Positions 14,071-55,190 of a DNA stretch of 64,000 bases are shown piece by piece; position 1 is the first letter of the stretch; every line of letters begins with the position of its first letter. Source of the stretch: Malacoraja senta (lineage: Eukaryota); contig CM075987.1 in NCBI GenBank assembly GCA_038087875.1, forward strand, positions 18,664,001 through 18,728,000, written 5' to 3'. Below the pieces are notes generated by a model. It had not been told where the DNA came from and made no database searches. It was given only the letters and a program-made list of their open reading frames with translations. The position numbers and the translations under genes are program-made.

Positions 14071-14079
14071 GTTCATTTA

Positions 14080-14355: not shown

Positions 14356-14366
14356 AAAAGTGCCCT

Positions 14367-20257: not shown

Positions 20258-23002
20258 CAGGGCTCGAAATTAGCGGTTGCCCGGGTCCCAATGGCCACCC
20301 AAAGTGCAGGCGGACAACCGAAATGCCGAGTCATTTTGCCCGGCTTGGCAATGCAGATACTGGTTTATACTGTAGACACAAAATACTGGAGTAACTCAGC
20401 GGGTCAGGCAGCATCTCTGGAGAAAAGGAACGTGACGTTTCATGTCGTCGGCGGCTGTAGTGCGGGGCAAAGATACTGGGTGACGGAGGTTCGGAGAGAA
20501 TGATGGGCCCCGCACAGCGGCAGTGGCGGCTCCACCTCCTCCTCCCGCACGCCCTGATAGCGGCCGCTGCTTGCCAACGGCGCTTTCAAAACAAACCCTC
20601 CCGCACGCCGAGAGGAGGGAGAGAGTAAGTCCTGCTTCCGCCATCTGAAGCACATGCACCACTCGGCCCCGCACCTTCCTGTTGGCTGGCGGAGGAGGGG
20701 CGGCGGTGGCGAGGATATCCCAACTGCTTCCCCCTTTAGTGGCGGCACTTGGCGGTGGACAGGGATAGCCAAGGCAGCGGGGCGATGATACCGGTGTTGT
20801 CCGAGGAGCGCTGACCTTCCTTCCTCCCCACCCTCTCTCTCTTTCTCTCTCTCTCTTGTACGCCCCCTTCCACCCCCTTATCCTGGGACCCCACCTCTCC
20901 ATCCCGCACTGATCCCCATTCCCGCCTCTATTCAGTCCTCACTGACACCCCCCCCCCTCCCATCTATTCATCCTGCACTGATCTCCCTATCCACCTCGCA
21001 TTGATTCTCCTGCCACCTCCCCATCCATCCTACACTGGTCCCCCAATTCATTTTTGAGTCCTGAAAAGCGCTATATAAATAAAATTTATTATTATTATTA
21101 TTATTATCCTGTACTGACCCCCTTTCCCATCCACCCTGCACTGCTCCCCCCATCCATCCTGTACTGACCCCCCCTTCATCCTGTACTGATCCCTCCATCC
21201 ATCCTCTACTGAACCCCCCATTCATCCTGTAGCGATCTCCTCATTCATCCTGTACTGATCCCCGCATTCATCCTGTACTGATTACCCCCCCATTCATCCT
21301 GCACTGATTCCCCATCCATCCTGCAGTGATTCCCCCCATTCATCCGGCACAGACCCTCCGATCCACACTGTACTGATCCCCCCAATTCATCCTGTACTGA
21401 TCCCCCCCCCCGATTCATCCTGCGCTGATCCTTCCCATCCATCCTGTACTGACCCCCCCCCCATTCAAGAAGAATGGGGGGGGGTCAGTCTGAAGGGTCT
21501 CGACCCGAAACGTTGGCTATTTCCTTCACTCCATAGATGCTGCCTCACCTGCTGAGTTTCTCCAACATTTGTCTACTCCCATCCATCCTGCACAGATCCC
21601 CCCGTCCATCCCGTACTGATCCCCCAATTCAACCCCACTGACATCCCCCGCGCTCTCCCCTCACAATTTGACCTACAACCAACACGCACTAATTCCCCTG
21701 CCTCAATCCATCCATTCCGCACCGATTGCCTTCTCAACCCCCCCCCCCCCCCCGCCATCTACCCGTCCCGCACTGATTCACAAACCCCCCCCTGCCCCCC
21801 CCGACGCTATTTTCCCTATTGTGCTGGAAATGTCTTCAGAGCGATTGCATATGTTTGATAACGGAATGCAATCAAATGTGTTTTAATTCCCAATGGTATT
21901 ATTTGTTTTAATCCATAAAGATGGATTGTGAACACGTGAAACATTAAAACCGCAGTGTTCGATTGCCACTGCTACCGTTGACACGTTATTACAGAATTCA
22001 TTTTAACGGCAAATCAATGCTCTTAATATGGAGTATCAGTACTGTAGTTATTTAATGAGCAACATTCACAACTATACGTTGGATTTATCCAGGTTTTACT
22101 TCTACAGTCGGTCATATACATCACAAATTTGGTCAGGAGATACTTCAGTTGAAATTTTAACGCTAATTCTGAAGTGGGAATGATGGAAACAGCGTTTATC
22201 AATAATATTTTAAAAATCTGGTGCTTACAAACTGGGTATCTTCATTGCTGTTCACAACATATACAACTAATCTGAATGTCCGGTAATGTGGCGTTTTGAC
22301 ACCTTTAAACATATTGCCAAAAGAACATTTGCTGCAGTTATGTCCTTTGGCCATCTCTTGCCAGTTAGTGTAATGTTTAACCTGTCAGAAGGATATAGTC
22401 GGTTTTAACAGCTATTAAAAAATGCCTTTAGAAATTTTCTTGCAACCTGTATATTTTGTTGTGGATAAATTATGTGGGAAGCGAGAGCGTTTCTGTACCA
22501 ATAGCAATAACGACCCATGCTATGGCCATGTCATGATAATTTTCGGTCCTTCACAGAAAACATGCTTGCATCAATCTGTAGTGTGCACGGTTAAGCATGT
22601 ATGTTACCATGGTCGAGGATTTATTGACACGGGTTGATCATACGCTGAATAATCCAACCACATATTTGTTTGGAAATGGAAAGAAATAAAGAAATTGCAT
22701 TAATTGCAATGTGTAAAAAGAGTTGAGATGCAGCAAAATTATAAGACAGTATGTCCTTGTGGTATATATCATGTCTTGATTGGTGAATATGTTTAGTTTG
22801 TGAGTTTATTTGAAGCAGAAATAATATGTGAATGCTTCATTGAGCATAATTCCGACTGGTAACTACGCACTTCGTCCACGTTGCATTATCGCACGCGTCA
22901 TGCAAGCCCTTAAATGACCACCTAAATTGTCATTTGGCAACCTAAAAAGCTGCCTAGGTTGCCCGGCATCCAACAGGGGAAAAAAGTTAAGTGAGAGCCC
23001 TG
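20258..23002. mobile_element. Non-autonomous CAGGG-ended DNA transposon (hAT-like, 5-bp TSD), copy 1
   Basis: Ends CAGGGCTC...GAGCCCTG. TSD CAAGT (20253-20257 / 23003-23007). Subterminal GGTTGCCCGG at both ends. Colinear with 35866-38032. Confidence 0.85.
20960..21465. repeat. About 21-23-bp minisatellite (CCCCCATTCATCCTGTACTGAT-like) inside the transposon
   Basis: Tandem degenerate units. A shorter array lies at about 36700-37030 in copy 2. Confidence 0.85.
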
Positions 23003-25188
23003 CAAGTACAAATCTGTTAAAGCAGCACAAATCTGTTAAAGATTTCCCTTTAAAGTATCCTTATAACTTCTAAACAATCCTATTATTTTCAAAGTGCCTG
23101 TTACTACATCGTAAATTCTAACATTCTAGCATTTTTCCTTCTCTAATTCCCAATTTTAACTTCTCTAATTCCCAATTTGCTCTCTATCCTTTCAGAAATA
23201 AAAGGATTACATTTGCTATTTTTCCAATGAAAAGTTTACTTTTAATATCGTTTTGCTTCAGGGACAAATAAACAGCATTGAAAATATATACGCACCAGAT
23301 AATCCCATTAGGTAAAACCTCTAGTTTGGGCCTGTGAATGAACGCCAAGCTCAAACACAATAGCACAACCATAGGACTTCAAATGCAAGAAAAATAAATA
23401 AGCTTAAAAAAATATTACTATTCGGGCAGCAGCCACAACAAAATGCTTTTAAGAAATAAGTACCACGATTCAGAGTCAGATTGTGTGAATGGATCCAATT
23501 TCAAGTAAGAAAAATAAAACCAATAACATTTAAAAAATAAATTTGCTCATAGAATGCAGTGACAGAACAGCCAGGCATATAACTCAAATTGAAGGAGAAA
23601 ACACAGCAAAGATTTATACAAGAAGTAAACTTTAAAGAACTGAAACCCAGAGGGCCAAACCTCTGGAGGGAAACCATGCAGAGATCTCGAAATTCAAAAA
23701 TACAGCTTTTTAAAAAAAAATGTCCAGATTAATCTCAAACTGGTTTAGATGTTTACAACGATACTGAAATTCCCGGCAGTAAGTTGCATCGTGGGTCTCA
23801 TTGAAACCCCGCAGTAGTGATTTGGTATGCTTGAGTTATTGAATTAGGCAAATTGATTTTATGGGGTTCCTGGAAAAGATTGCCATTTTCCAAAACATCT
23901 ACATTGCAGTGCAATGGGAACAGTCTTTATCTAAGCTAATCAGAAGATACAAATGCACATTTATTGAGATGCTCCTAAATGAATGCTATGCCCTACAGAT
24001 GCAGTCAGACCAAAAGATACATGTCAACATAACTTGAGTAAGTGCTTTATAGATTCAAAGAAAATCTAGAATGCACAAACATACATGAGATGCAATAAAT
24101 TAAATGCATACACTATACACACAAGGCTTTGATTACTCTTTAAAAATCAGAACTACATGAGATGCAGTGCTGCTGCAATAGAGTGGATAGACCAGTTGGC
24201 AACATGCTATCACATTTCCTTCTCAACCATCTCCCATTCTATGCCAGCATGGAAAATAATTCTCAAATCACAGAATTATTCATGAACTAGACATATTTTC
24301 TAAATTATAAACTTGGGCAAAGGTCCAAAACACCATAGCTAAAAGGAATAGAGGAGATAAATCAAAACACACTTAGGTGAAGGTAGACGTAAAATGCTGG
24401 AGTAACTTAGTGGGACAGGCAGCATCTCTGGAGAGAAGGAATGGGTGACGTTTTGGGTCGAGACCCTTCTTCAGACACACTTAGGTGACATGGAAATAGA
24501 GCTTTAAGTGTGCAGGTTATTTTAGGGAGGAAACAGAGGAGCCATAAATTATGTCCTACTGATCATGAAAATAAATTTCAGGCATTTAAAAAATTGATAA
24601 TTATTTAGAAATACAATGACTAAATCTTAATTTAGTTCCTTTAATAGAAGCTGGTAGATGGAGCAGTCCCATCTCTAGGATGTTTCAAAATTGTTTTTTA
24701 GGCATTTCGCTGACGTGTGTTGCCAGAGATAGCAATAAGTATTACAGATACTTTTTTAAAGAGGAAACAGGGCTGCGTTGGACTGAAAGTTGTCAAATGT
24801 ATCCATGCTATTCCTTCAGAATTACCACTCAACAATAAAAACATTAATCAGGAAACATCCTGCAAACCCACGCAGTTCTGACATGTGTGAATCAAAAAGG
24901 GCTATTGTATATCATGTGGCAAAAGTGAGAACAGAGCATCAAATTCAAGGCACAATTCTTTTTGCAAAATCTGGAGAAATGTAGGAACCTTGTTATTCCA
25001 GCATTCGTTTCCCAATTCATTAAATTATTTTAAATCTGGGACGTAGAGCTATTCTTACAAAATACGAATCAGAGCTACAATTGCAATGTTAAACCGAGAC
25101 TACATGTTTGTGTCCAATTTATGAAAAAAACTGCAGAGTTCCTCATTTTTGTATTGTATGTTGGATAAACCAGGACAAATAATAATAA

Positions 25189-26037
25189 CCAGACCAAGTG
25201 GAACCCGTTGGGTTCCTTTCACATGGGAAGCCTGGTCCCCAACGCAATTACCTCGCCATCCCTCCTCCTGCCCCTATCCTCCATTCACCCTCATCCCGCA
25301 GAACTCCCCCTCATCCCGCAGAATTCTCCCCCGATCTTCACCCTCCCTTTTCTCCCCTCCCCTTATTTTTGTGTGATTTTTAATGTAAATGGAACCCCCA
25401 CCCCAACAATGAAAATCACAATGTTTTTTCAAATGAAACCTCCCCCTATCCTACACACCCCACAATGAAAATCACAATTTTTTTTAAAAAGGGTTATTTT
25501 TCCGTGATTTTTTATGTAAATGGAAACCTCCCCCCCTATCCCACCCCCACAATGAAAATCGTGTTTTTCCCCAAATGAAACCTCCCCCCTATCCCACCCC
25601 CCCCAATGAAAATCGAGTTTTCTTTTAAAAAGTGAGTTTTCCCGCGATTTTCTTTGTAAAAGTTTATGTAAATAAGTTTCGCAAACCCATTATGACGTCA
25701 TTGTGAATGAAAACGGGAGAATTTGAAATAAACAGAATTTTTTTGAAAAGAGCAAATTTTTATGTAAATGAGATTCGGGATCCTATTATGACATCATACG
25801 CAGCTAACGGGCAGTGCAGATGGAAGTGATTTTTGTCAAAGTGGTTTTTGTAAAGTTTAAAATGTGAATAACTTGTAAAATATACCATCAATTTGAACAA
25901 AACTTGCCACAGTACACCACAGGACAATGGTGAGTAAGGTGGGCCAAAATTGTAGCGCTATCCTGTACCATTTTGGCATTGTTTCAGGATCACACATACT
26001 CACTTGCATACAAACAAGATGAGAGTTTTAATATATA
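25189..26037 (-). mobile_element. Non-autonomous Helitron, family A
   Basis: Minus-strand 3' end: hairpin GGAACCC-AAC-GGGTTCC, then CACTTGGT, then CTGG|T (CTRR). 5' part TATATATTAAAACTCTC. Confidence 0.75.
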
Positions 26038-27765
26038 CTAGACCAAGTGCAGACCCGTTGGGTCTGGACACTGAACGTGCGTTTGCGGGGGGGGGGGGTG
26101 CTGTGGCGTCACACTAACCACCCCCTTTCCTCCAAAGCACGGAAGCCGGCACCCACAAACACCCACACTCATCACTCCCCTTGGTATTATTTTAATTTTT
26201 AAATTTGCTTCTTTTATCCCATCTCCACCCTATCCACTGACGAATAGCCCTCACCTCTCATGTGCGTCTAGAGGGGGGGGGGCATAGAGAGAAAATTTAA
26301 AAATTTGAAGAGGGCGAGGAGGAGGGTGGAGAGGGAGGGTGGAGAGGAAGGGGGGAGAGGAAGGGGGGAGAGGAAGGTGGTGAAAGAAGAGGGGGAGAGA
26401 GGAGAGGGGTGGAGAGAGGAGGTAGAGGATGGGGAGAGAGGTGAAGGAGGGTGCTGGAGCGGGCATGCATGAGTCGATCCGCGGGCTGTGAAGAGAGAAG
26501 GGCAGAGAGAGAGAGAGAGAGAGAGGGGAGAGACAGAGAGACTTGTATACAAAAAAAAGCTGGAGAAACACAGCGGGTGCAGCAGCATCTATGGAGCGAA
26601 GGAAATAGGCAATGCTTTGGGCCGAAGCCCATCCTCAGATGGGTTTTCTACTGAAACGTTGCCTATTTCCTTTGATCCATAGATGCTGCTGCACCCGCTG
26701 AGGTTATACATTTTTGTTTTGTGTACCTTCGATTTTCCACCATCTGCAGTTCCTTCTTAAAGACAGAGAGACTGTTGACGGGCTGTTTTCCCAACGCGCG
26801 TTTGCGGGAGGGGGTGGTCTGCGGCATCACACACACTAACCACCCCCCAAACACACTCGGGGGGAGAGGAAGACGGGGTGGGGAGAGAAGAGGAGAGGGG
26901 GGGGGAGGGGAGAGGGGGAGGAGGAAAGGGGAGAGATTGGTGAGGGAGAAGAGAGCAGGGTGGGGGAGAGGGATGGGGAGCAGAGTGGGGAGTGGGAGGA
27001 GAGCGTGGAGGGCAGGAAGGGGGGAGAGTCGATGTTAGAGGTGGAGAGAGGGGATGAGGGGAAGGGGAGAGGAGTAGGGGGAAGAGAGGGAGAGAGGGAG
27101 GGGGGAGGGAGAGAGGTGGGGGAGGGAGAGGGGAAGAGTGGGGAGTGAGGGGCAGAGGGGTAGCGGGGAGGGGGATGGGGGGGAGATGGGGGTGAAGAGG
27201 GGTGGTGGAGGGGGAAGAGAGGGGGTTGGAGGGAGGGAGGGGGAGAGGAGAGAGGGGGAAGAGTGGGGAGGGAGAGTTGAAGTAGGAGGGGTAGGGACAG
27301 TCCATCTGTTCCCCATTCCCTATCACCCCCAATCCTCTTTCTCTATTCCCACACACGTGACGACACCCTTCGACACAGGCTGTGGGGTTGGGGGGGAGGG
27401 GCTGGTGCTGGGGCTGCTGCAAAGGCATATGTAAATGGCTCCATTCCGATTGGACATGTGTGAGCATCGGCATTGTGACATCACACAATGAAAACTTCAC
27501 TAACATTCTATGGCTGAGAGCTGTTTTTTTAGACATTTTGAAATGTTGGGGGGGGGGGGGGGAGAAGTATTTTATTTAAAAAAGTGTACATAAACTCGAC
27601 CAAATTTAATCAGGAGTGGCTATTCGTAAAGATAAATGAAATCTCTTAGAAATGGTAAAAAATATCGGCGTTTACGCGTGCTGTGTGGGCCTAGGGCGTA
27701 TCAAAGGGGCTTGGTGACACAAGTCAGGCAGCCGGACGGTCGGCAGCCAGAGTTTTAATATAATA
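26038..27765 (-). mobile_element. Non-autonomous Helitron, family B copy 1
   Basis: Minus-strand 3' end: CAGACCC-AAC-GGGTCTG CACTTGGT CTAG|T. Colinear with 27766-29911. Confidence 0.8.
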
Positions 27766-28558
27766 CTAGACCAAGTGCAGACCCGTTGGGTCTGGACACC
27801 GAACGTGCGTTTGCGGGGGTGGTGGTGGTGCTGTGTCATCACACTAACCACCCCCTTTCTTCCAAAGCACGGAATCCGGCACCCACAAACACACACTCAT
27901 CACACGCCTTGATATTATTTTAATTTTTAAATTTGCTTCTTTTATCCCATCTCCACCCTATCCACTGACGAATAGCCCTCACCTTTCAGATGCATCTAGA
28001 GGGTTGGGGCAGAGTGAAAATTTAATGTTAGAAAAAAAAATTTGAAGATGGGGATGAGGAGGGTGGAGAGGAAGGGGGAGAGAGGAAGGGGAGAGAGAGA
28101 GGGGGAGAGAGGAAGGGGGAGAGGAAGGGGAGAGAGGAAGGGGGAGAGAGGAAGGGGGAGAGAGGAAGGGGAGAGAGGAAGGGGGAGAGAGGAAGGGGAG
28201 AGAGGAAGGGGGAGAGAGGAAGGGGAGAGAGGAAGGGGGAGAGAGGAAGGGGAGAGAGGAAGGGGAGAGAGAGAGAGGAAGGGGAGAGAGGAAGGGGGGA
28301 GAGAGGAAGGGGGAGAGAGGAAGGGGGAGAGAGGAAGGGGGAGAGAGGAAGGGGGAGAGAGGAAGGGGGAGAGAGGAAGGGGGAGAGAGGAGGGGGAGAG
28401 AGGAGGGGAGAGAGAGAGAGAGAGGGTGGAGAGAGGAAGGAGAAGATGGGGGAGAGAGGTGAAGGGGGGGTGTTGGAGCGGGCGTGCATGAGTCGAGCCA
28501 CGGGCTGTGAAGAGAGAAGGGCAGAGAGAGAGAGAGAGAGAGAGAGAGGAGGAGAGAG

Positions 28559-28595
<37 letters not shown>

Positions 28596-29911
28596 CAGAG
28601 AGACTGGTACAAAAAAAAAGCTGGAGAAACACAGCAGGTGCAGCAGCATCTATGGAGCGAAGGAAATAGGCAACGCTTTGGGCCGAAGGTCATCCTCAGA
28701 CGGGTTTTCTCCCGAAACGTTGCCTATTTCCTTCGATCCATAGATGCTGCTGCACCCGCTGAGGATATACAGGTTTTTTTTGTGTACCTTCGATTTTCCA
28801 GCATCTGCAGTTCCGTCTTAAAGACAGAGAGACTGTTTGCGGGCTGTTTTCCCAACGCGCGTTTGCGGGAGGGGGGGCTGCGGCATCACACTCACACTAA
28901 CCACCCCCCAAACTCACACTAACCACCCCCAAACACACTCGGGGGGAGGGGGGAGAGGAAGACGGGGTGGGGAGAGAAGAGCGGAGAGGGAGACGGGGGT
29001 GGGGAGAGAAGAGGAGGGGGGGAGGGAGGGGAGAGGGGAGGAGGAAAGGGAGAGATTGGTGAGGGAGAAGAGAGCAGGGTGGGGGAGAGGGAGGGGGAGG
29101 AGAGTGGGGAGTGGTAGGAGAGCGGGGAGGGCAGGAAGGGGGAGAGGGGATGTTAGAGGTGGAGAGAGGGGATGAGGGGAAAGGGAGAGGAGTAGGGCGA
29201 AGAGAGGGAGAGAGGGAGGTGGGAGGGAGAGAGGTGGGGGAGGGAGAGGGGAAGAGTGGGGAGTGAGGGGCAGAGGGTAGCGGGGAGTGGTGCAAGAGAG
29301 AGGGGAAGGAGGTGGGGGGAGATGGGGTGAAGAGGGGTGGTGGAGGGGGAAGAGAGGGTGTGGAAGGGGAGGGAGGGGGAGAGGAGAGAGGGGGGAAGAG
29401 TGGGGAGGGAGAGTGGAAGTAGGAGGGTAGGGACAGTCCATCTGTTCCCCATTCCATATCACCCCCAATCCTCTTTCTCTATTCCCACACACGTGATGAC
29501 GCAGCCTTCGACACAGGCTGCGGGGGTGGGGGGGAGGGGCTGTGGCTGCTGCAAAGGCATATGTAAATGGATCGATTCCGATTGGACATGTGTGAGCATC
29601 ATCGGGCATTGTGACATCACACAATGGAAACTTCACTAACATTCTATGGCTGAGAGCTGTTTTTTTTAACATTTTGAAATGTTGGGGTGGGGGGGAAGTA
29701 TTTTATTTTAAAAAGTGTACACAAACACGACCAAATTTAATCAGGAGTGTCTATTCGTAAAGATAAATGTAATCTCTTTAGAAATGGTAAAAAATATCGG
29801 CGTTTCCGCGTGCTGTGTGGGCCTAGGGCGGTATCAAAGGGGATTTGTGACACAAGTCAGGCGGATGGCAGACACAAGTCAGGCAGCCACAGAGTTTTAA
29901 TATAATATAGA
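27766..29911 (-). mobile_element. Non-autonomous Helitron, family B copy 2 (expanded GA-rich repeat at about 28060-28440)
   Basis: 5' end A|TCTATATTATATTAAAAC, same 3' hairpin plus CTAG|T, no TSD. Confidence 0.85.
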
Positions 29912-35137: not shown

Positions 35138-35865
35138 TAATTAGCAAACGAGTGCACCACATTACAGTGGTATCATGTAGAACCAAGCACAGTCGGGTAA
35201 GTTTAAAACAATGAAGCAGAATCAAGTTTTATTGTGGAACTATAGATTTTGAGTGGCAAAGTTGATCAGATCAAGACGTCTCTGGAAACATATTATCTGA
35301 GGGTTGATATTAGTAAAATCCTTAATGTTACTGGGGAAATAAAGGAGAAGATGTGGGGCAACTAGGATGGATAAGTCAAGTCAATAGAGTTTATTGTCAT
35401 GTGTCCCAGATAGGACAATGAAATTCTTGCTTGCTGCAGCACAACAGAATATTGTAAGCATTAAAAAAATACAGAACAGTTCAGTGTGTCTATATATCAT
35501 AGACCATGTATATACACATATAAATAAACAGATAAAGTGCAATAGGCTGTTATAGTTCAGAGTCTGTTTGTTGGCGAGTTTAATAGCCTGATGGCTATGG
35601 GGAAGTTGCTGTTCCTGAACCTGGATGTACTAGATTTCAGGCTCATGTACCTTCTACCCGATGGTAGCGGAGAGATGAGTGCGTAGCCAGGATGGTGTGG
35701 GTCCTTGATGATGTTGGCAGCCTTTTTGAGGCAGCGATTGTGATAGATCCCTACGATGATGGGGAGGTCAGAGCCGATGATGGACTGGGCAGCGGTCACA
35801 ACTTTCTGCATTCTTTTCCGCTCCTGGACGCTCAAGTTGCCGAACCAAGCCAAGATGCAACCAAG

Positions 35866-38032
35866 CAGGGCTCAAAATTAGAGGTTGCCCGGGTGCCCCT
35901 GACCACTCAAAGCGCCGCCGGGCAACCTAAACGCCGAGTCATTTTGCCCGGCTTGGCAACCAGATACTGGTTTGTACCGAAGATAGACACAAAAAACTGG
36001 AGTAACTCCGCGAGTCAGGCAGCATCTCTGGAGAAAAGGAACGCGACGTCTCGTGTCGGCGGCAGCTGTGCGGGGCAAAGATACTAGGTGCGGGGTGAGG
36101 AAGGGTCAGAGCGAATGACGGGCCCCGAACAGCGGCTCCTCCTCCCGCCCCCCGCCCGTCCTGATAAGGGCCTCTGCTGGCAAACCCGCTAACCGCGATA
36201 ACCACTTTCAAAACAAACCCTCCCGCACTCCGAGGCTGGGAGGAAGGAGGGAGGGAGGGGGAGGCCTCGGAGTGCGGGAGGGTTTGTTTTGAAAGCCCGT
36301 TAGCGGATTTACAAGCAGAGGCCCTGATCAGGGCGGGCGGGGGTCGGGAGGAAGGGGAGATGGAGCCGCTGTCACGGCCTCTGTGCGAAGCCCGTCATTC
36401 GCTCCGACCCTTCTGAAGCAGCTGCACCAAAGATCTTATAGCTATAGGATCTCTGAGCTGCACCGCCCGGCCCCGCACCTTGCTGTTGGCTGGCGGAGGA
36501 GGGAGGCGGTGGCGAAGAGTTCCCAACGGCTAAGGCAGCGGGGCGATGTTGTCCGAGGAGCGCTGACCTTCCTTCCTCCCCACCCCTCTCCCTCTCTCTC
36601 TTGTACGCCCCCTCCACCCCTCTTATCCCGCACCGATCGCCATTCCCGCCTCTATTCAGTCCTCACTGACATCCCCTGTGCTCCCCTCCCCATCTACCCC
36701 CCCCATCTATTCATCCTGCGCTGATCACCCTATCTACCACGCATTGATTCTCCTGCCACCCCGCCCATCCATCCTATACTGGTTCCCCAATTCACCCTGT
36801 ACTTACCCCTTTCCCATCCATCCTGCACTTCTCCTCCATCCAACCTGTACTAATCCACGCATTCATCCCGTACTGACCCACCCTCCATTTACCCTGCACC
36901 TTCCCCCCTTCATCCTGTAGTGATCTCCCATTCATCCTGCACAGACCCTCCGATCCACACTGTACTGACCCCCCCCCCCATTCATCCTGCGCTGATCTCC
37001 CCCCCATCCATCCTCTACTGATCCTCCCATTCAAGAAGAATGGGGGGAACAGTCTGAAGAAGGGTCTCGACCCGAAACTTTGCCTATTTCCTTCGCTCCA
37101 TAGATGCTGCCTCACCCGCTGAGTTTCTCCAGCACTTTTGTCTACCCCCATCCATCCTGTACTGAACCCTCCCATTCAACATCACTGACATCCCCGGTGC
37201 TCTCCCCTCACAATTTTACCTACTCCAACCAACACGTACTAATTCACCTGCCTCAATCCATCCATTCTGCACCGACTGCCGTCTAACCCCCCCTCCCCCC
37301 CGCCATCTATCCACCCCGCACTGATTCACACACACCCCCCTCCCTGACCCTATTGTGCTGGAAATGTCTTCAGAGCGAACATTGACTATGTTTGATAACG
37401 GAATGCAATCAAATGTTTTAATTCCCAATGTTATTATTTGTTTTAATCCATAAAGATGGATTAATTTAATTGTGAACACGTGAAACATTAAAACCAGTGT
37501 TCGATTGTCACTGCTGCCGTTGACACGTTATTACAGAATTCATTTTGACGGCAAATCAATGCTCTTAATATGGAGTATCAGTACTGTAGTTATTTAATGA
37601 GCAACATTCATAATTATACGTACGCATATATGTTACCATGGTCCAGGATTTATTGACACAGGTTGATCATAAGCTGAATAATCCAACCACATTTTTGTTT
37701 GGAAGTGGAAAGAACTAATAGAAATTGCATTAATTGCAATGTGTAATAAGAGTTGAGATACTGTCTTATAATTTTGCTGCATGTCATTGTGGGATATATC
37801 ATGTCTTGATTGGTGAATATGTTTAGTTTGTGACTTTATTTGAAGCAGAAATAATATGTGAATGCTTCATTGAGTATAATTCCGACTGGTAACTACACAC
37901 TTCGTCCGAGCACATTATCGCACGCGTCATGCAAGCCATCTTAAATGACCACCTAAACTGTCATTTGGCAACCTAAAAAGCTGCCAAGGTTGCCCGGCTG
38001 GCAACAGGGAAAAAAAGTAAGCGAGAGCCCTG
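35866..38032. mobile_element. Non-autonomous CAGGG-ended DNA transposon (hAT-like, 5-bp TSD), copy 2
   Basis: Ends CAGGGCTC...GAGCCCTG. TSD CCAAG (35861-35865 / 38033-38037). Confidence 0.85.
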
Positions 38033-38037
38033 CCAAG

Positions 38038-38657
38038 TCAAGTCACATTTATTTATATAGCACATTTAAAAAACAATTCTCGTTGGCCAAAGTGCTTCAT
38101 ATTTGTTATAAGAATAATATAAACAAACATACATACATACATATAGCCCTCGCTCAGAGGATGTCAAGAAAGGCTTGGGAGTATAGATAAGTTTTTAGTC
38201 TTGACTTAAAGGAGTCGATGGAGGGGGCAGTTCTGATGGGAAGGGGATGCTGTTCCACCGTCTAGGAGCTGCAACCGCAAAGGCGCGGTCGCCCCTGAGC
38301 TTATGCCTAGACCGCGGGATATTCAGCAACCCCAAGTCGGCCGATCTGAGGGACCTGGAGGTAGAGTGGTGGGTGAGAAGACTTTTAATGTAGGTGGGGG
38401 CAAGCCCATTGAGGGCCTTGTAGACATAGAGGATCTTGAAATGTATACGGAACCGCACAGGGAGCCAGTGGAGAGAGGCCAGGATCGGGGTGATGTGGTC
38501 CCTTTTTCGGGTGCCCGTCAGGAGTCTCGCTGCGGCGTTTTGGACCAGTTGCAGGCAGGACAGGGAAGATTGGCTGATGCCAGTGTAAAGGGAGTTGCAG
38601 TAATCTAGGCGGGAGATAAATGTGTGGATGATCTTTTCGAGGTCATCAATGTGGAGG
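38038..38657 (-). mobile_element. 5'-truncated L2 LINE
   Basis: SRLDYCNSL...LQLVQNAAARLLTG...HITPILASLHWLPV...RAFAVAAP is an L2 RT C-terminus. 3' end GTGCTATATAAATAAATGTGAC(TTGAC)n. Likely TSD AACCA (35859-35863 / 38658-38662). Confidence 0.9.
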
Positions 38658-40278
38658 AACCAGTCAGCATGCTCTCTACTGTGCACCTGTAGAAGTTCGA
38701 GAGAGTCCTCTTTGACATACCGACTCTCCATAATCTTCTCAGGAAGTAGAGGCGCTGATGTGCTTTCTTTATAGTAGCATCAGTGTGCTGGGACCAGGAA
38801 AGATCTTCGGAAATATGCACACCCAAGAATTTGAAGTTCTTGACCCTTTCCACCATCGTCCCGTTGATATAAACGGGACGATGGTGGGTCCCTATTCTAC
38901 CCCTTCCAAAGTCCACAATCAGTTACTTGGTTTTGCTGGTGTTGAGAGCCAGGTTATTGTGATGGCACCATTTGGTCAATCGGTCGATCTCACTTCTATA
39001 CTCTGACTCGTCACCATCAGTGATTCTTCCCACAACAGTGGTGTCGTCGGCGAACTTGATGATGGAGTTCGCACTATGACCGGCTACGCAGTCATGAATA
39101 TAGAATGAGTAAAGCAGCGGGCTGAGCACGCAGCCTTGAGGATCCAATTGCAGAGGGAAGCTTGGTAACCAGCTTGGAGGGGATGATTGTATTAAATGCC
39201 GAGCTGTAGTCAATGAATAACAGCCTGACATACGAGTTTTTGTTGTCCAAGTGGTCCAGAGCGGAGTGGAGAGCTAGTGAGATCGCATCCACCATTGATC
39301 TGTTGTGGCAGTAAGCGAACTGCAGTGGGTCGAGGTTCTTGTCGAGGTAGGAGTTGATATGCGCCATAATCAACCCCTCATAGCACTTCATCACCACAGA
39401 CGTTAGTGCCACTGGTCGATAGTCATTGAGGCACATCACCTTGCTCTTATTGGGCACCGGTATTATTGATGCCCTTTTAAAGCAGGTGGGAACATCAGAC
39501 CTCAGAGGTGAGAGGATTAAAATGCCCGTAAAAGCCTCAGCCAGTTGGTCCGCACAAGATAAATTGTCAAAGAGAACTTAGGGAAAAGTAAAAGAAATTG
39601 TCAAAATGATAAATTGTCGGAGAACTTAAGGAAACGTTTTTTAAAAAGTTGCACAAATGTAGCACCTAATTTCCAGAACAATGAGCTGAGACTCGTGGAT
39701 TTAATTAAGGACATTTAATAAGCAATCAAAGGAGAGAATGGATTAGAAGGATGTGCTGAGAGAAACAGAAAAAGGAAGAGGAAGCATGTGTGGAACACAA
39801 ATTCTGGAATGAACCATCTTGGCAGAATGGTCAGAATTTAACAAAATATTGATTACCTGGAAATATATTTGTATACAAAAACCTCCACACCTAATCTATC
39901 ATCTCCTATTCAAATATTTGAGGGGGAGATATCCAAAGATGTGCTCAAAAATGAAATGATAGTAGTTGCACAAACTTACAAGAGGATGGGAATAAAAAAG
40001 GGTAAGAGAGGATCTTAAAAACAGATTTTAGTAAATATTGAACCCTCCTTCTGTTATGCTAGATGCTGGAAGTTAGAGCGTGGCGCAGTGGCAAAGCGGT
40101 AGAGACCCAGGTTCCATCTTGACCACAGGTGCTGCCTGTATGGAGTTTGCATGTTCTCCCTGTGACCACGTGGTTTTCCCTGGGTGCTCTAGTTTTCTCC
40201 CATACTCCAAAGATGTAGAGATTGGTAGGTTAATTGGCTTCGGTTAAATTGTAAATTGTTCCTCATGTGAAAGATAGT

Positions 40279-41525
40279 ATAAGTGAGTTTGGTATTCCAG
40301 AAAATCGCAAGGAATCAAGGGATTTGTCAAAGGTCAAACGCTATAAAAAAAAATCGAACAAAGCGCTTTAGATACAGTGAGTATAGTTTGGGTCCGATTT
40401 TTGCCTTTTTTCAAGTTCGTATTTGTCAGGGGGCAGATACAGCAGGCAGATGCAAGTGGGAGGCCGGGGGGGGGAGACTGGACCGGCTCTCGGCAGCTGC
40501 ATGCACACCTCATCCGCAGCCAGGAACGAACCCGTGTCCCTGGCGCCGCAAGCACTGCAAATCTGCCACTGGACCGTCCCCGGTGTCCCACCCCCCACTC
40601 GAGTGTCCCATCTCTGCCTGGGGGGCGGCCGGAGACATCCGGACTGACGGGACACCGGCCCCCAGGCCCACAGCCAGTGCGGAGAAGCACCAACTCCAGC
40701 TCACCTCCACCTCTCCCGCTGGGCCAACCTACCGGCCCGGCCGGACCGACAACACCAGTGACCCCAGGCCCACAGCCAGCATGGAGAACGCACAGGCCCA
40801 GAGCCAGCGCCAACTCCAGCCCAACCCCGCTTCAACTCCAGAGGAACCCACTCCCCGATGGGTCGCTATGGCGACAAGTGCCAGTTCGCCCACGGCCTGG
40901 CAGAGATGCACTCCCTCAGCCGCCACCCCAAGTACAAGCCAGAGCCAGCCTGGGCTCAGCCTCCTCCGGCCCGGACTCTAGGCTTGGGGCTGAGCAAGAA
41001 AGGGAGAGGAGGTTGCTGCTGCCACCAGCACCACCATCACCAACAGCTCCAGCGGGCGCCCGGCCTGCCCATGGCTGGCAGGAGCCCGTCCGCAGACTCT
41101 CTCTCCGACCAGGACGACTCCAGCAGCAGCTGCTCCGAATCGCCCTTTTTCGAGCAGGGCCGGTGGCTACTCATCTTCAACAGGATCTCGGTGTTGGACT
41201 GAGGGGAGTGGGGTGGAGGTGGAGGTGGAGCCAACCCAGCGGGACAGGCAGAGCCAAGCTTGAACCAGCGGTTGCAGCGCCGGCTGCAGGTCCGGGGCCG
41301 CCCCGCCAGCCCAGGGCCACCCGGACAGGGACGGGACACCGGGGAGAGGACGGGGATGGCCCAGCAGCAACTCAACAGCACCCGCAGCGATGGAGAGCCG
41401 GGCCCGACCCCGACCACGGACGAAACACAAGTCTGCACACAATGCAGCACCACCGTTGCCAAGACTGTTTTTCGCTTGTGACCTATGACCTGGGCATGCG
41501 CAGTCGGAATACCAAACTCGCTTAT
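40279..41525. mobile_element. Unclassified TIR element, copy 2, inserted in a SINE and carrying a host gene fragment
   Basis: TIRs ATAAGTGAGTTTGGTATTCC / GGAATACCAAACTCGCTTAT. Candidate 4-bp TSD TAGT. Splits a SINE into two halves. Confidence 0.8.
40858..41202 (+). pseudogene. Rearranged ZFP36/TIS11 (tristetraprolin-family) gene fragment, 114-codon open frame
   Basis: [27 protein letters not shown] matches the second half of CCCH finger 1 plus the linker (family consensus KYGxKCQFAHGxxELRSLTRHPKYKTE). [33 protein letters not shown] matches the family C-terminus (RLPIFNRIS-type motif), with the stop at the homologous position. Confidence 0.85.
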
Positions 41526-44500
41526 TAGTGCAAGGGGTAATCACTGGTCAGCATGGACTCAGTTTCCTTGCTGCATCTCTAAAGTCTAAAGACCTGGAAG
41601 GATCATGCTGTACTTAAACAAATTAACAAGACTCGTGGCAAAAGATATTTTCAGCCCACAAAATGAAACCATGCTGTAATTTACAATTGATTTGGGACAC
41701 AATTGATTTGGGAGAGCAGGCACTGTGTTCTTTTCTTAATTATCACAGTTGTGATAACTACCAAGATCTGCACATTTTACTTAATCTACTATTCCAGGTC
41801 ATTCAAATAAATGACTCTCCAAACTGCATGTTTAAGCAGCAATAAAACAAGAATTGCCTAGACTGTCACTTTAATGTGAGGAACTCAGACAATTCCCTGC
41901 TGCTCAGAACAAATAGAAATTTATAGGTATGATGATTTGAAACCATAGCACAAAAAAAACATGTGATTTTATGCCTCTAGCTCTTACTACACTGTAACCA
42001 TTCCAGCAATATTCAATTGAAACCTACATGTTTAGACTGATAACAAAGGTATCACTAGGCAAAACATTTACTGATGTATACAATTATAATGGAATCCAGT
42101 CATTTTATCTTCTCGATAAAATGCAAAAAAAATGCCAAAGAATCTTACTCTGAGGGTTTCACTGCTCGCATTCAAATCAGGTGCAGTGGGGCATTAAATT
42201 TTAATCAATTTTAAACCAACAGTACTCTTGACATTTAAACAAAACACACAATCTGCTCCTCCAATTACAGCAATGTTCTGATGTCAATGTATAGATTCTT
42301 CTAAGATGCATACAAATCCAACTGCCCATACAGAAAACAAAAATCTAATTTAATATCTGGCTCAGACCCCTTCCCTCTCCCAATTTCCCTATACGGTCCA
42401 TTTCCCTCTTGCACTCTCAGTCCTGATGCAGGACCTTGATCCAAAATATCAACCATCCCTTTGCCTCCACAGACACGGCCTGACCCCCTGAACTGATTTG
42501 TTTGCTTGTTTACCTCAAATTGTTTACCTCAATGGCTTGCTTGTTTACCTCAAATTGAACATCCGGTGAGGGATCTATATTAGCCCGATCGCTGGGGAGA
42601 AAGACTCCACTCTTCCACAAAAGAGAGGCGTGGGATTTATCCACTCAAGCATCAAACTTTAACATTTACTTTTAAAGACGCACAGAGCTGAATGGCAGTG
42701 CATGGCCAGAGTGCACGAACAATAACCATTGAATACCTCAAATCACAATTAAGTAGTCAGAACCATCCCCACGACCTTAGCTAATACCTCTGTCACAAGG
42801 ACATATCCACTAAAGGGAAATGGAAGCTGCCATCCCATCAGACTCAATCACATATACAAACATTAGATCTGGCTCGACTAAAAATACACAGATTAAATCA
42901 ATACAGCCCAAGGTTTTCACACACTGGGCTCAGGAAAGATGTGTACTTCCTCACGAAGAACCACAGTCACTGCAACTGTCCGTTTACTGCACAGTAATGC
43001 AAGACTTTAAGCTGATCACAACATGCTTCCATGAGCCACTGATAAGTGGCTACGACAAAAAACATGACAAAACATTTTGCAGAGTACATCGTGTTTCTGC
43101 CTACAGTACAAAGATACTTTTGTGAAGATGGTGTTAATATATGCCATGACTGTAAGCAAGAACACAACAGAATTGATGCTTGCTCATTGAAGATGTTGGC
43201 TCTTGATCTTTACCAGAAATCCAGAGGGTGGAGGATACATCAACCTCGTTCATCACAAATGAAGCCACATTTTTGAACAATAGAATTTCTGATGGCTTTA
43301 CAGCTCCAGACTAGAAATCTTTAGTCAATGACAAAAAAAGTTTCTAATTTTGATATGATATACTGTTACTTGAGGCTGGGAGATCATATAATGTGCAGTT
43401 CTGGTCACCCCATTACTGGAGAGATGCAATTGAGAGGTTTTGGAGAGGGAACAAAGGAGATTTACCAGAATTCTGCCTGGATCTGAGGGTTTCAGCTACA
43501 GGGAGAGGCAAGTTTTTTTTTTTTTTTTTTACACACAGTGGTGGGGGCCTGAAACGCATTGTCAGGGGTGGTGGTGGAGGCAGATACAAAGGGTCTGGCA
43601 AGGTGCGAGCAGTGATGAGGGTTAAGGCTGGATCAGTTATGTTCTTGTTGTATGGCAATGATCTTTCAAGAGTCTGACTGGCATACTACTGATATTTCCA
43701 CTTCATTCCATGCGCCAAAAGAATCTAATGATTCTAATCAGAGTCATCCCATCGGTCAATCTGCCGACGATCAAACGAGGCACGCCTCTGGGCAAATGAT
43801 TTGGCTTCTCTTCCCTAATTGCTGTCCCCGTCACAAGTGATCCACCTGCCAACTCAGTGTGTTTCCTTGAACACAAGTGCCTTCATGGCTGGGAATTCTT
43901 AATTCAAGGGAAAACTTCATGTGTTTTACAAAGGAAATGGTAATTTTCCTTTTGATCCAAGATCAAGTTTCATATTACCCATTCTTGGCCAGGCTGAGCA
44001 AACAGGACTTCAGCTCATCTTCCCTCTCTTATCTCGTCTCTGCATTAGCTAACAGACATAATCTTTACTGTTGCAAAGAAATGATTCTGAATTAAATGCC
44101 GTAGTCAAACTCAACTCAGTTACAACAGGTTACTTCAAGAAAAATCTCAAGTGAAAAGGAAGGGCTGGGTTTTGAAAGAGTATTCTGCCTAAATGCATTA
44201 GCTGAACAAAACAATTTATAGAAACCCATCACAAATTTTCCTGAAAAGTATTGCATTTCCGAATGAAAAAACACAAAATATTTCCATCAACACATGCAAC
44301 ACCATGTCCATGTTCCAGCATTTCATTATCAATATCTTCAGAATGGAAAACGTAGGATTTAATACGGATATAATTCCAAACTTCATGTATCTGTTTGTTT
44401 GCTCAAAACTTTTCAACAAAATTTGCAGCACATGTGAGTTTTGAGGTGGAGACAGATGCACAAAAATAGCACGACTGTGAAATGTAACCCATTTTACATG

Positions 44501-47430: not shown

Positions 47431-47494
47431 TTCTATAATCATTCACAATAAAGAACTGATATGCTTGGATAGACACAACATGCTGGAATAACTC

Positions 47495-49215
47495 AGGGGG
47501 AAGGGGGGCGGGAGGGAGGGGGCAAGGGGGTGGAAGGGGGGCAAGATGGAGGGGGAAGGGGGCAGGAGGGAGGGGGGAAGGGGGCAGGAGGGAGGGGGGA
47601 AGGGGGAAGGAGGGAGTGGGGAGGGGGGAAGGGGACAAGAGGGAGGAGGGAAGGGACAAGAGGGAGGGGGAAAGGGACAAGGGGGAGGGGGAAAGGGGGA
47701 GGGGGAAAGGGGGGAGGGGGAAAGGGGGAGGGGGAAAGGGGGAGGGGGAAAGAGGGAGGGGGAAAGAGGGGAGGGGGAAAGAGGGAGGGGGGGAGGGAGG
47801 GGGGGGAGGGAGGGGGGGAGGGGGCAAGAGGGAGGGGGGGAGGGGGCAAGAGGGAGGGGGGGAGGGGGCAAGAGGGAGGGGGGGGAGGGGGCAAGAGGGA
47901 GGGGGGAAGGGGGCAGGAGGGAGGGGGGGAAGGGGGCAGGAGGGAGGGGGGGAAGGGGGCAGGAGGGAGGGGGGAAGGGGGCAGGAGGGAGGGGGGGGAA
48001 GGGGGCAGGAGGGAGGGGGGAAGGGGGCAGGAGGGAGGGGGGAAGGGGGCAGGAGGGAGGGGGGGAAGGGGGCAGGAGGGAGGGGGGGAAGGGGGCAGGA
48101 GGGAGGGGGGGAAGGGGGCAGGAGGGAGGGGGGAAGGGGGCAGGAGGGAGGAGGGAGGGGGGGAAGGGGGCAGGAGGGAGGGGGAAGGAGGCAGGAGGGA
48201 GGGGGAAGGGGGCAGGAGGGAGGGGGAAGGGGGCAGGAGGGAGGGGGAAGGGGCAGGAGGGAGGGGGAAGGGGCAGGAGGGAGGGGGAAGGGGCAGGAGG
48301 GAGGGGGGAAGGGGCAGGAGGGAGGGGGGGAAGGGGCAGGAGGGAGGGGGGGAAGGGGCAGGAGGGAGGGGGGGGAAGGGGCAGGAGGGAGGGGGGGAAG
48401 GGGCAGGAGGGAGGGGGGAAGGGGCAGGAGGGAGGGGGGAAGGGGCAGGAGGGAGGGGGGAAGGGGCAGGGAGGGAGGGAGGGAGGGGGCAGGAGGGAGG
48501 GGGCAGGAGGGAGGGAGGGAGGGGGCAGGGAGGGGAGGGAGGGAGGGGGCAGGAGGAGGCAGGAGGGAGGGGGAAGGAGGCAGGAGGGAGGGAGGGAGGG
48601 GGGAAGGGGACAGGAGGGAGGGGACAGGAGGGAGGGGACAGGAGGGAAGGGGCAGGAGGGAAGGGGGCAAGAGGGAGGGGGGAGGGGGGAAGGGGGCAAG
48701 AGGGAGGGGTCAAGAGGGAGGGGGGAAGGGGGCAAGAGGGAGGGGGGCAAGGGGGAAAGAGGGAGGGGGGGAAGGGGGCAAGAGGGAGGGGGGGGAAGGG
48801 GGCAAGAGGGAGGGGGGGAGGGGGCAAGAGGGAGGGGGGAAGGGGGCAAGAGGGAGGGGGGAAGGGGGCAAGAGGGAGGGGGGGAAGGGGGCAAGAGGGA
48901 GGGGGAAGGGGGCAGGAGGGAGGGGTGGAAGGGGGCAGGAGGGAGGGGTGGAAGGGGGCAGGAGGGAGGGGTGGAAGGGGGCAGGAGGGAGGGGTGGAAG
49001 GGGGCAGGAGGGAGGGGTGGAAGGGGGCAGGAGGGAGGGGTGGAAGGGGGCAGGAGGGAGGGGAGGAAGGGGGCAGGAGGGAGGGGAGGAAGGGGGCAGG
49101 AGGGAGGGGGGAAGGGGGCAGGAGGGAGGGGGGAAGGGGGCAGGAGGGAGGGGGGAAGGGGGCAGGAGGGAGGGGGGAAGGGGGCAGGAGGGAGGGGGGA
49201 AGGGGGCAGGAGGTT
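47495..49215. repeat. G-rich minisatellite, about 20-22-bp unit (GGGGGAAGGGGGCAGGAGGGA)n, 1.7 kb
   Basis: Tandem units are directly visible, with variant blocks (GCAAG, GACAG, GGGGTGG). Confidence 0.95.
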
Positions 49216-49459
49216 GGGTCAGGGCCGGAGAGAGGAGGGGGAGGGGGGACGGAGAGCAGGCCCGGAGGGAGGTGCGGGCAAGGCAGGGGCAGTGCGGGAG
49301 GTGGGCGCATGGGAGCACGTATAATAAGCCTCTGTCTGAAAAACGTCTGAACGAACGCTTCGACCCGAAACGTCGCCCGTTCCTTCTCTCCACAGATGCT
49401 GCCTGTCCGGCGGAGCCACTCTAGCACTTTGGTGCCAGTCTATAATAAACCCCTAACCG

Positions 49460-50100
49460 GGGGGACGGACGACGACGACGACACTGCAGTGCGGGACATG
49501 GTTACAGAAAAAACTTCTGTTGAAGTTCATTCCAGGATTGTCAACTTCAGGCTGGCGGCGGGACCGGAGCTGGGGCAATGCCCTCGCCCGGACCGGGGGG
49601 GGAGAGAGGAGAGGGAGGGAGAGGGAAAGAGAGGGGAGGGAAGAAAGGGGGGGGGAGGGGGAGGAGGAGGAGGAGGGGGGAGGGGAGGGGGGAGGGGGGA
49701 GGGGGAGTCCGCTGCCCGGCAACGGCCCAGCCTAAAGCGTCCAGCCCCCCCCCCCCCCCCCCCCTTCCTCCCTCCTCGCCTCCACCCCGCGACCTCAGAC
49801 TCAGACTCACCCACACGCCGCTCCCCGTGTATGTCTGCCTCTGTCCCCGCTGCCGCTGCCGCTGCCGCTTTGCCCTTCCTTCCCTCCTCCTCCTCCTCCT
49901 CCCCGCTCGCCCGGAGAAACAGCGCAGCCCGCGCCGCACCGGAAACCAGCGCGCTTGACAACGGACGTGACGTTGACGAGGGTGCGCGTCGCCCAGCAAC
50001 AGACCCCGCCCACTCGTAAACAAAGCGCTGGGCGTGTCACAGAATTGGTCACACAGCCCGGAGACCCGTCCAGCAGCTAGTGCCATGGTTTAGCGCGCAA
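49460..50100 (-). promoter_or_regulatory. CpG-island promoter, probably of NACC2
   Basis: Non-repetitive CpG-dense segment. Motifs: ETS-like CCGGAA (49939-49944), CRE-like TGACGT (49968-49973), GC box CCCCGCCC (50004-50011), forkhead GTAAACA (50016-50022), KLF-like GGGCGTGTC (50030-50038), and CCAAT on the minus strand (50044-50048). Confidence 0.75.
49811..49945 (-). other. NACC2: Probable non-coding exon 1 of NACC2 (5' end approximate)
   Basis: Lies inside the CpG island, ends at a consensus donor TGG|GTGAGT (intron 49810-49805), is oriented toward the NACC2 acceptor at 4626, and is GC-rich with no ATG. Confidence 0.65.
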
Positions 50101-53994: not shown

Positions 53995-55190
53995 TTATTT
54001 ATTTATTTTTTATTTATTTATTTATTTGTTCCGAACAAGTAAAGACATAAATAGGAATAAATAACAACAACAAAATCGAAATAGTCAAACATTGGACATT
54101 CCAGGCAATATTTGCAAAGCAATGAAAAGCATAATGCAAGATTTAAATGTCCAACACTTTTTCTTTACAAGCTCGAAAAGGAGTGAGGAGAAGAATAACT
54201 TATTTAATCTCACCCCTTCTCCCTAAACCCTTCTTCCATATTTAATAATTAATTAATTAATAATAATAATACCCCAGACAATTTTTAGAGATACATACAG
54301 CCATATATATACATACAACTGAGATACACATACAAGTAATATGTATGAAGTAACCAAAAGACATAAATAAATAATAAATAAAATAATAAATAAACATTAA
54401 CCCCTGTTTGTCAACCATCCCCTTCATCCCTGTACCTTGTGAAAAAAAGTTTTTTGTATGTCATTTTGAACTGGTTCATGTTTGGATATTGCTTTAATTC
54501 CACATTCAAACTGTTCCACAATCCTACTCCACAGACCGAAATACAAAAAGTTTTTCTGGTCGTGCGGACTCTTTGTACTTTAAAATTAAATATTCTTCTT
54601 AAATTATAACCCCCCACTCGCACATTAAATAATTTTTGTATATTTCCAGGTACGTTTTTATTTTTGGCCCTAAACATTATCTGTGCTGTTTTAAATGCAA
54701 CCAAATCTTCTAATTTTAATAATTTTGACTGTAAGAATAATGGATTAGTGTGACCCAGATACCTGACCTTGTGAATAATTCGTATTGCTCTTTTTTGCAG
54801 AATAGTTAATGAATGTAACGAACTTTTATAGTTATTGCCCCAGACTTCTGCACAGTAATTTAAATAGGATAAGATTAGTGAACAGTAGAGAATGCGGAGT
54901 GATTTGTGCTCCAAAACCTGCTTAACTTTGTGTAGTACCGAAATGCTTTTTGACAGTTTGGATTGTACATGTTTAATGTGTGATTTCCAGCTGATTCTAT
55001 CATCCATTATAACCCCAAGAAATTTATTTTCATGAACCTATTCTATTTCAACCCCATTTATCTTTATATTTGCTTTTGTATTTGTTCTGCAATTACCAAA
55101 TAACATTATTTTGGTTTTGCTCATGTTTAATGATATTTTGTTCCTGCCAAACCATGTTTTCAGTTTTCCCATTTCTTTTGTTATTTTGTT
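53995..55190 (-). mobile_element. 5'-truncated CR1/L2-group LINE (Crack/Daphne-like RT C-terminus)
   Basis: ORF 54411..55007 (WKSHI..SKLSKSI..LYCSLILSYLNYCAEVWG..LQKRAIRII) and upstream NKISLNMSKTKIMLF. (AAAT)n tail. Confidence 0.8.

Follow-up and report, generated by a model that had tools for sequence, protein, structure and literature searches.

A very probable case of decaying ZFP36-like coding cargo from an old multi-copy Pack-TIR family in skates

How did part of a ZFP36-family coding sequence come to lie inside a transposon, and does the fragment still encode a functional product? These questions are raised by an open reading frame in the 64-kb stretch of DNA analysed here (the window). 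An earlier sequence-only reading had reported an ATG-to-TGA frame of 114 codons at 40858-41202 on the plus strand, inside an element with terminal inverted repeats (TIRs), and translation of the window returned this same frame, with the ATG at 40858 and the TGA at 41200-41202. The evidence described below makes it very probable that this element, E40, belongs to an old multi-copy Pack-TIR family of skates and that its cargo is decaying. Frame length is no guide here: when the element was shuffled 2000 times with dinucleotides preserved, ATG frames of at least 114 codons arose in 45% of cases. We also observed a stop-free frame of 393 codons without an early ATG (40347-41525, plus strand) that covers nearly the entire element. 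A frame of that length was reached in 0.2% of dinucleotide shuffles and in 1.5% when the cargo was held fixed; the frame had no Pfam match and no usable protein-atlas match, and is probably explained by how rare T is on this strand and, within the cargo, at codon position 3.

The assignment of the 114-codon frame to the ZFP36 family proved to be far above chance. Residues 3-29 match the tandem zinc finger structure of ZFP36L2 (1RGO, E 7.9e-9), the same finger region matches the structure of TTP (1M9O, E 3.7e-8), and the best protein relatives are chondrichthyan ZFP36-family proteins of 278-313 amino acids, with P0002 of Rhinoraja longicauda at the top (E 6.8e-41). The frame is identical to the skate parents at 25/28 and 44/51 positions in two blocks (86-89% in the retained blocks), and its final 51 residues are 86% identical to P0002. 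Orthologues of P0002 are found in Amblyraja (P0122) and Leucoraja (P0123), and all three proteins are intact. NCBI labels for this parent vary between ZFP36-, L1- and L2-like. The Tis11B_N domain, present in teleost L1, is missing from the skate parent, and a quick tree (58 of 162 selected rows, SH-aLRT supports) placed the chondrichthyan parents in one clade (99), apart from the teleost L1 rows and weakly grouped with TTP-like rows (89). On these comparisons the skate parent is probably the ZFP36/TTP orthologue. This third paralogue (P0002, P0122, P0123) is the source of the cargo, which differs from it in having no complete CCCH finger, no N-terminus and a damaged CNOT1-interaction motif. 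The cargo contains segments that are present in the skate proteins and absent from the aligned sawfish, stingray-group and shark proteins, and the window would therefore be from a skate, and the capture would postdate the split of skates from other rays.

When aligned with P0002, whose numbering is used here, the cargo is a single colinear piece corresponding to parent residues 119-289, now in three blocks behind an ATG supplied by the element. The features of this region, including the starts of two further skate protein records (P0024 and P0125) that are described below, are as follows.

40858-40863, plus strand: ATG and one codon, element-side and not parent-derived; same start in P0024 and P0125
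40864-40938, plus strand: cargo block A, in frame, with the latter half of finger 1 and the linker (parent residues 119-143); 23/25 identical to P0002
40944-40973, plus strand: cargo block B, undamaged but not in the frame of the ORF (parent residues 182-191); 10/10 match to P0002 in the shifted frame
40969-41202, plus strand: cargo block C, parent residues 211-289 and stop codon, in frame; 66/77 aligned residues identical to P0002
41161-41190, plus strand: damaged CNOT1 motif, R315 equivalent changed to W and P317 equivalent to L
41203-41505, plus strand: right arm of E40, GC-rich and possibly including parent 3' UTR; runs colinear with the end of Leucoraja P0024 as far as 41478

Block B is bounded by net deletions of 109 nt, which takes out finger 2, and 62 nt. 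Each deletion shifts the frame, and together they remove 171 nt or 57 codons, so that the two frameshifts cancel and the apparent ORF of broken fingers plus tail results. In about one case in three, a second indel would be expected to bring a shifted frame back into register. The retention of the C-terminal motif in one open frame, noted in the sequence-only reading, carries no weight. Blocks B and C overlap by 5 nt, and 6-7 nt can be read as either parent flank, which on comparison of the window with the parent protein suggests a microhomology-mediated deletion. The zinc fingers are indeed broken: finger 2 is gone, finger 1 keeps its third cysteine and its histidine (2/4 ligands, or 2/8 across both fingers), and a Pfam search with the 114-codon ORF returned no family and thus no complete CCCH finger.

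Some details of the earlier description have to be revised. The finger half and linker that it placed at 40864-40944 were correctly identified, but homology stops at 40938; the C-terminal segment is present, but homology begins at 40969 (parent residue 211), ahead of the DSLSDQD at which it had been said to start; and finger 2 is absent as stated, but most of the middle is not, 57 of the 171 captured codons being lost and 10 more (40944-40973) being present out of frame. Nor is the coding sequence shuffled, since the pieces are colinear and the join consists of two internal deletions in this copy. The same colinearity rules out exon shuffling.

The cargo is carried by an element without a transposase. 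The features of the element, its insertion site and a related element in the window are as follows.

40281-41523, plus strand: E40, non-autonomous TIR element of ~1.24 kb without transposase; ends uncertain by 1-2 nt
40279-40298, plus strand: left TIR, with AT at 40279-40280 as either a target duplication or the outermost two bases of the TIR
41506-41525, minus strand: right TIR, including the AT dinucleotide at 41524-41525
40605-40788, no strand assigned: GC-rich repeat pieces, two partial direct copies; also found inverted within the sister element at 15235-15330
40080-40278, plus strand: left part of a SINE-like repeat, start approximate; high copy, with a depth of ~1e6 in sequencing runs
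41526-41590, plus strand: right part of the SINE-like repeat, end approximate; continues the left part in register
14371-15531, plus strand: sister element E14, which shares its TIRs and sub-terminal sequence with E40 and has another interior

The 20-bp TIR arms are complementary at 19/20 positions, and a degenerate pattern derived from the four ends of E40 and E14 has 4 matches in the window versus 0.32 expected. Together with the parent P0002 and the colinear blocks, these TIRs bear out the proposal that a TIR element captured host ZFP36-family coding DNA. The interior of E40 is ~65% GC, compared to ~40% outside. No Pfam family was found in five long frames of E40, and no Rfam match at 39900-41800. 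No autonomous partner with the same TIRs was found in the 64-kb window or in metagenomes, the latter also containing no match to a 24-nt sub-terminal stretch of the element. A metagenome search with the cargo kept 80 of 116 loci, in which the zinc-finger half alone was matched and the element ends were present in none. The ends of E14 and E40 are 83% identical over 89 nt and 73% over 166 nt, and a ZFP36 match above noise was not found in E14; the TIR family thus seems to carry varied internal sequence. The interior of E14 is GC-rich and CpG-rich (o/e 0.81), with two open frames of 147-173 codons that have no Pfam matches. In contigs from the sequencing runs, depth is high on both E40 ends and peaks over the GC-rich pieces at 40610-40700.

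E40 lies within a SINE, and E14 directly after one. An uninterrupted copy of the SINE-like repeat at 14080-14360 has 7 other matches, including the host SINE of E40. E40 and E14 are both compatible with an AT target, whether duplicated or split with no duplication, and this reading restores the exact length of the SINE (n=2), whereas a TA duplication fits both elements but leaves the SINE 2 nt long. Note that 2-bp AT or TA duplications are indistinguishable from terminal TIR bases, and that insertion without a target site duplication (TSD) fits equally well. No TSD longer than 2 bp was found in common between E40 and E14. We rejected a 4-bp TAGT TSD; the host SINE contains this tetramer twice at the site, a loss of 6 nt would be needed, and the duplication is absent at E14. 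CryptonV was also considered as a class of vehicle. Helitrons terminate in TC and CTRR. The Helitrons of bats, discussed below, are rolling-circle elements, whereas E40 has inverted repeats at both of its very ends and lacks the TC and CTRR termini.

The sequence-only reading had raised amplification as a possibility, and two kinds of evidence now indicate that the cargo was indeed amplified. The first comes from protein records. P0024 (XP_055493223.1), a RefSeq "ZFP36-like" model from Leucoraja erinacea, has the same element-side ATG junction, keeps finger 2 (PF00642), and then leaves the ZFP36 frame. Past finger 2 it is colinear with the window in several frames up to 41478, for an overall colinear span of 40858-41478. 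P0024 lies on an 88.0-Mb contig and the intact parent P0123 on a 12.4-Mb contig. P0024 is a transposon cargo copy and not a fourth paralogue, as judged from its junction and colinearity. A second record, P0125, comes from a Logan contig of 1385 nt; it starts with the same ATG and continues uninterrupted to its end. Past its first ~16 residues it matches the Leucoraja-type parent, including at sites where Amblyraja and Rhinoraja differ, so that P0125 is probably an assembly chimera that still records the junction, although it could be a real intact (young) copy. P0150 has the same first four residues but a non-skate linker, and its resemblance was taken as chance.

The second kind of evidence comes from sequencing runs. 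Of the ten organisms listed (A-J), three were used, the small shares of the others being left aside; four runs from these three (X1, X4, X15 and X23, the last labelled as probably DNA) were compared with 39700-42400 at 80% likeness; 32 of >110,000 contig pieces and 15 of 557 joints were listed. In X1, X4 and X15 the unique flanks are covered by single contigs with depths of 16-65. At cargo sites 41146, 41148, 41169 and 41171, in contrast, 37-46 contigs per run have another base, versus 1 on the flanks. Summed cargo depth relative to flank depth was 223-425 in X1, 67-118 in X4 and 83-135 in X15. The X1 flanks show 0 differences in 455 and 900 bases, and X1 may be the source sample; X4 and X15 are from other organisms, with flanks that differ by 3.0-6.5%. 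Given that summed depth is not a copy number, that contigs overlap and that X1 may be the source, we keep to a tentative, indirect estimate of tens to low hundreds of cargo copies. Two records of X23 join cargo to element: record 18 crosses the ATG junction (40741-40946), and record 21 connects the cargo C-terminus at 41159 with the right end at 41519. Nine cargo pieces among those listed differ by 11-16% from this copy. This divergence exceeds that of the orthologous flanks, which fits a spread older than the splits of these species. Right-flank contigs start inside the element in X4 (at 41499) and X15 (at 41498), a hint, below the 31-letter bar, that the E40 insertion is common to the three organisms. 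In the bin at 40792-40882 the summed depth was 208,000 in X4, compared to 10,000-16,000 in X1 and X15; some sequence in this bin is much more abundant in the organism of X4.

Could the founder have arisen by retroposition, a truncated ZFP36 cDNA having landed in an existing TIR element and then been carried along? The captured region lies within a single large exon of vertebrate ZFP36 genes. Its probable confinement to one exon means that intron loss cannot discriminate between the two origins. Precedents for such an event are the retrogenes inside bat Helitrons (PMC4224331) and ARF6 in MER20 (PMC8277862). However, no poly(A) tract, AATAAA or ATTTA is found between the stop codon and the right TIR, and the cargo ends have no TSD of their own. 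The locus is likewise not a single-copy insert with its own TSD and poly(A), the pattern that had been named as pointing to later retroposition, since the cargo is multi-copy and has no poly(A). On balance retroposition is decidedly improbable, and direct capture of host coding DNA by the element remains the preferred origin.

We then consider what has become of this copy. A TTP peptide places L316, I318, F319 and I322 into a groove of CNOT1, while R315 forms a salt bridge with E893 and P317 is hydrogen-bonded; the F319A change makes CNOT1 binding ~1000-fold weaker and binding is lost with R315A plus F319A, with no figure for R315 alone among these values (PMC11939966). In the present frame the equivalents of the four groove residues are all retained. 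The motif is mutated (RWLLIF) as had been noted, the translation having W at the R315 equivalent and L at the P317 equivalent, and these replacements probably weaken CNOT1 binding by this copy. An asparagine in the tail that resembles mammalian TTP is a substitution, all skate parents having serine at this position.

The last 50 residues of the frame contain 7 changes relative to each of the three skate parents, pairs of which differ from one another at 0, 1 and 1 positions (Fisher p 0.059). When block A is pooled with the last 50 residues there are 9/75 versus 1/75 changes (Fisher p 0.018), the P0002-P0123 pair differing at 2/75. Note that this is an amino-acid comparison with parent proteins and is modest in strength. 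Of the changes relative to P0002, 8/13 are C>T or G>A, and 3 are at CpG. The parent-type base accounts for 98.6-99.4% of the depth at the Pro codon in X1, X4 and X15, and for 86-89% at site 41146 in the three runs, and these changes therefore belong to this copy or to a small subgroup. The changes in the motif are thus minority states in the family, and the Leucoraja copy is out of frame past finger 2, two further reasons to give no weight to an open frame in this copy. As a counterpoint to decay, the ORF is free of internal stops and the CNOT1 motif retains its hydrophobic core.

These data bear on the idea that this copy is a selected micro-gene, encoding a peptide that is dead for RNA binding and still binds CNOT1. 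The idea draws on the open 114-codon frame with a G at +4 of its ATG, on the retained L316, I318, F319 and I322 equivalents, and on an insertion that may be common to three organisms (below the 31-letter bar). It has to contend with the changed R315 and P317 equivalents, with 7/50 changes where intact genes differ by 0-1, with two cancelling frameshifts and a frame of a kind found in 45% of shuffles, and with a cargo that opposes the presumed host transcript and has no evident promoter or nearby poly(A) signal inside the element. We regard a selected micro-gene as very unlikely indeed. The default explanation of plain pseudogene cargo is upheld by the two cancelling frameshifts, the 7/50 tail changes and the motif damage, and this copy most likely makes no functional product. 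The cargo of plant Pack-TYPE elements is mostly pseudogenic.

Function could instead reside at the level of the family, with some copies that retain the founder frame, or RNA antisense to the parent, acting as a truncated CNOT1-binding protein or as a regulatory or small RNA directed at the parent transcript. In 3/3 protein records that show the junction, its ATG is in frame with the captured coding sequence. P0125 is whole from ATG to end, P0024 is a RefSeq gene model, and most of the family depth keeps the Pro codon. At least 30% of Pack-TIRs were transcribed in the three species profiled by Tan et al. (PMC8277862). On the other hand, P0024 is out of frame past finger 2, P0125 looks like an assembly chimera, and RNA pairing with the parent would be imperfect because the listed copies are 11-16% apart. 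Further cargo-derived proteins were also lacking: there were 0 among 8 candidates at 62-200 aa, P0024 itself was the sole match (1 of 1905 candidates) in protein sets, outside of which pseudogenes lie, and in a search of 50%-representative proteins P0024 was the sole skate cargo record recognised among 150 listed of 199 matches. A family-level function of this kind is accordingly unlikely, and we retain decaying cargo as the reading of E40. The peptide and the antisense RNA raised as possibilities in the sequence-only reading find no support in these data.

The surroundings of E40 were examined for a host gene. Two features on the minus strand are relevant.

3632-4626, minus strand: region of the first coding exon in a NACC-family BTB gene, 3' limit provisional, with an ATG at 4573 and an acceptor-like site near 4626
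49805-49950, minus strand: putative first exon, non-coding and located within a CpG island; a donor-like site lies near 49810

The CpG island spans 49.1-50.3 kb and has a donor-like site on the NACC strand. The host gene is probably NACC2 rather than NACC1. The earlier proposal that a minus-strand NACC2 pre-mRNA reads through the element is supported as to a NACC-family BTB gene on the minus strand, while the span of the pre-mRNA is conjectural; if both exons belong together, E40 would lie in NACC intron 1 with its cargo antisense to the host transcript. An intronic antisense sequence that differs by 11-16% from its relatives is weak ground for regulation. The window also contains several other repeats. 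Nested long inverted repeats at 36100-36413 (54 nt at 89%, 37 nt at 86% and 32 nt at 100%) constitute a large foldback, to which sequence at 20253-20612 is related. A dispersed pair of 2-3 kb repeats, 68-90% identical, is located at 20253-23007 and 35862-38038, and a tandem duplication of ~1.7-2 kb (84-85%) at 26022-27770 and 27749-29911. Frames resembling LINE- or Penelope-type fragments were identified by eye, all on the minus strand, at 9870-11031, 38195-38779, 39092-39577, 54411-55037 and 61417-62097. A low-complexity purine-rich tract of ~2 kb (47440-49350) adjoins the CpG island and is a source of spurious long ORFs.

We propose that the locus was formed in four steps. First, a TIR element would have taken up a continuous piece of ZFP36/TTP-like sequence, starting halfway through finger 1 and reaching at least as far as the stop codon, probably via template switching in gap repair or replication, and the left junction would have placed the element-side ATG in frame with the captured coding sequence. 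Second, transposase supplied in trans would have carried the loaded element to further sites, numbering from tens to low hundreds, as the protein records and run contigs indirectly indicate. Third, one copy entered the SINE seen in the window, apparently at an AT site, probably in the first intron of the NACC gene. Fourth, as comparison with the parent protein shows, that copy underwent the 109-nt and 62-nt deletions, the second with microhomology, and accumulated point changes, the majority of them C>T and G>A, in a pattern that gives no hint of constraint.

If this is correct, the present copy, as decaying cargo, has little significance of its own, and the interest lies in the family. Multi-copy gene capture is seldom reported for TIR elements in animals. 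The family provides many neutrally evolving copies of one conserved gene, which could serve for dating and as a means to learn whether captured regulator fragments are purged or silenced by their hosts. It also accounts for at least one annotation that misleads, that of XP_055493223.1 as "ZFP36-like" in Leucoraja. One can also imagine that the founder was a mini-gene, with its own ATG and residues 119-289 (half of finger 1, the whole of finger 2 and the CNOT1 motif), that was amplified to about a hundred or more copies, some of them intact and expressed, competing for CNOT1 as a truncated protein or acting as antisense or small RNA on the parent ZFP36 transcript. We consider this a long shot; if intact expressed copies do exist, they would amount to a transposon-driven expansion of an mRNA-decay regulator in a vertebrate.

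Finally, we compared E40 with known elements. With regard to the vehicle, ISL2EU elements of the PHIS superfamily have an AT target duplication in A|AT|T and TIRs that usually start with GG (Han et al. 2015, PMC4482050). Such a target is exact at E14 and agrees at 3/4 positions at E40, for n=2 and with a no-TSD reading being equivalent. In contrast to the usual GG, all four ends of E40 and E14 would begin with AAG, and no transposase was found. Autonomous ISL2EU elements have a DDE/THAP transposase and a YqaJ ORF. Spy, also of PHIS, was rejected, its AAA|TTT target and GGANNNNG termini being absent from E40 and E14. Literature listings and the opening parts of abstracts, from sources other than subscription journals and repeat databases, contained no report of this skate Pack-TIR family.

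With regard to the cargo, E40 has the attributes of a Pack-TIR: shared TIRs, an identifiable parent elsewhere and no transposase. It is also multi-copy, the same cargo and ATG junction being found in P0024, P0125 and X23 record 18. A survey of 100 animal genomes identified 370 Pack-TIRs (Tan et al. 2021, PMC8277862); the words "shark" and "skate" do not occur in the main text of that paper. The animal Pack-TIRs resemble E40 in being non-autonomous TIR elements with a nameable parent from which the cargo is distant, and in having exonic cargo of a few hundred bp and microhomology at a junction (PMC8277862). Vertebrate DNA elements that hold host gene fragments at high copy, as in the skate family, are also known from vespertilionid bats, in which gene-carrying Helitrons comprise 12,382 copies from 110 families, a few of them under purifying selection (Thomas et al. 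2014, PMC4224331). The rice Pack-MULEs and plant Pack-TYPE elements are likewise similar, host coding fragments having been amplified by a non-autonomous TIR element, but Pack-MULEs are plant elements with long TIRs and 9-10-bp TSDs, whereas E40 is a vertebrate element with 20-bp TIRs and an AT target (PMC8277862, PMC4224331). The clearest difference concerns copy number. Four animal Pack-TIRs (1.4%) are multicopy, the example shown having three copies and the fly Ssk-FB4 family four, compared to 36% multicopy among rice Pack-MULEs as cited in the same paper (PMC8277862), and to an indirectly estimated tens to low hundreds of copies in several species here. Coding cargo so far above three or four copies would represent, in a vertebrate, an expansion resembling that of Pack-TYPE elements in plants. 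E40 is thus a Pack-TIR of a known kind, and it is the apparent copy number of its family that is unusual.
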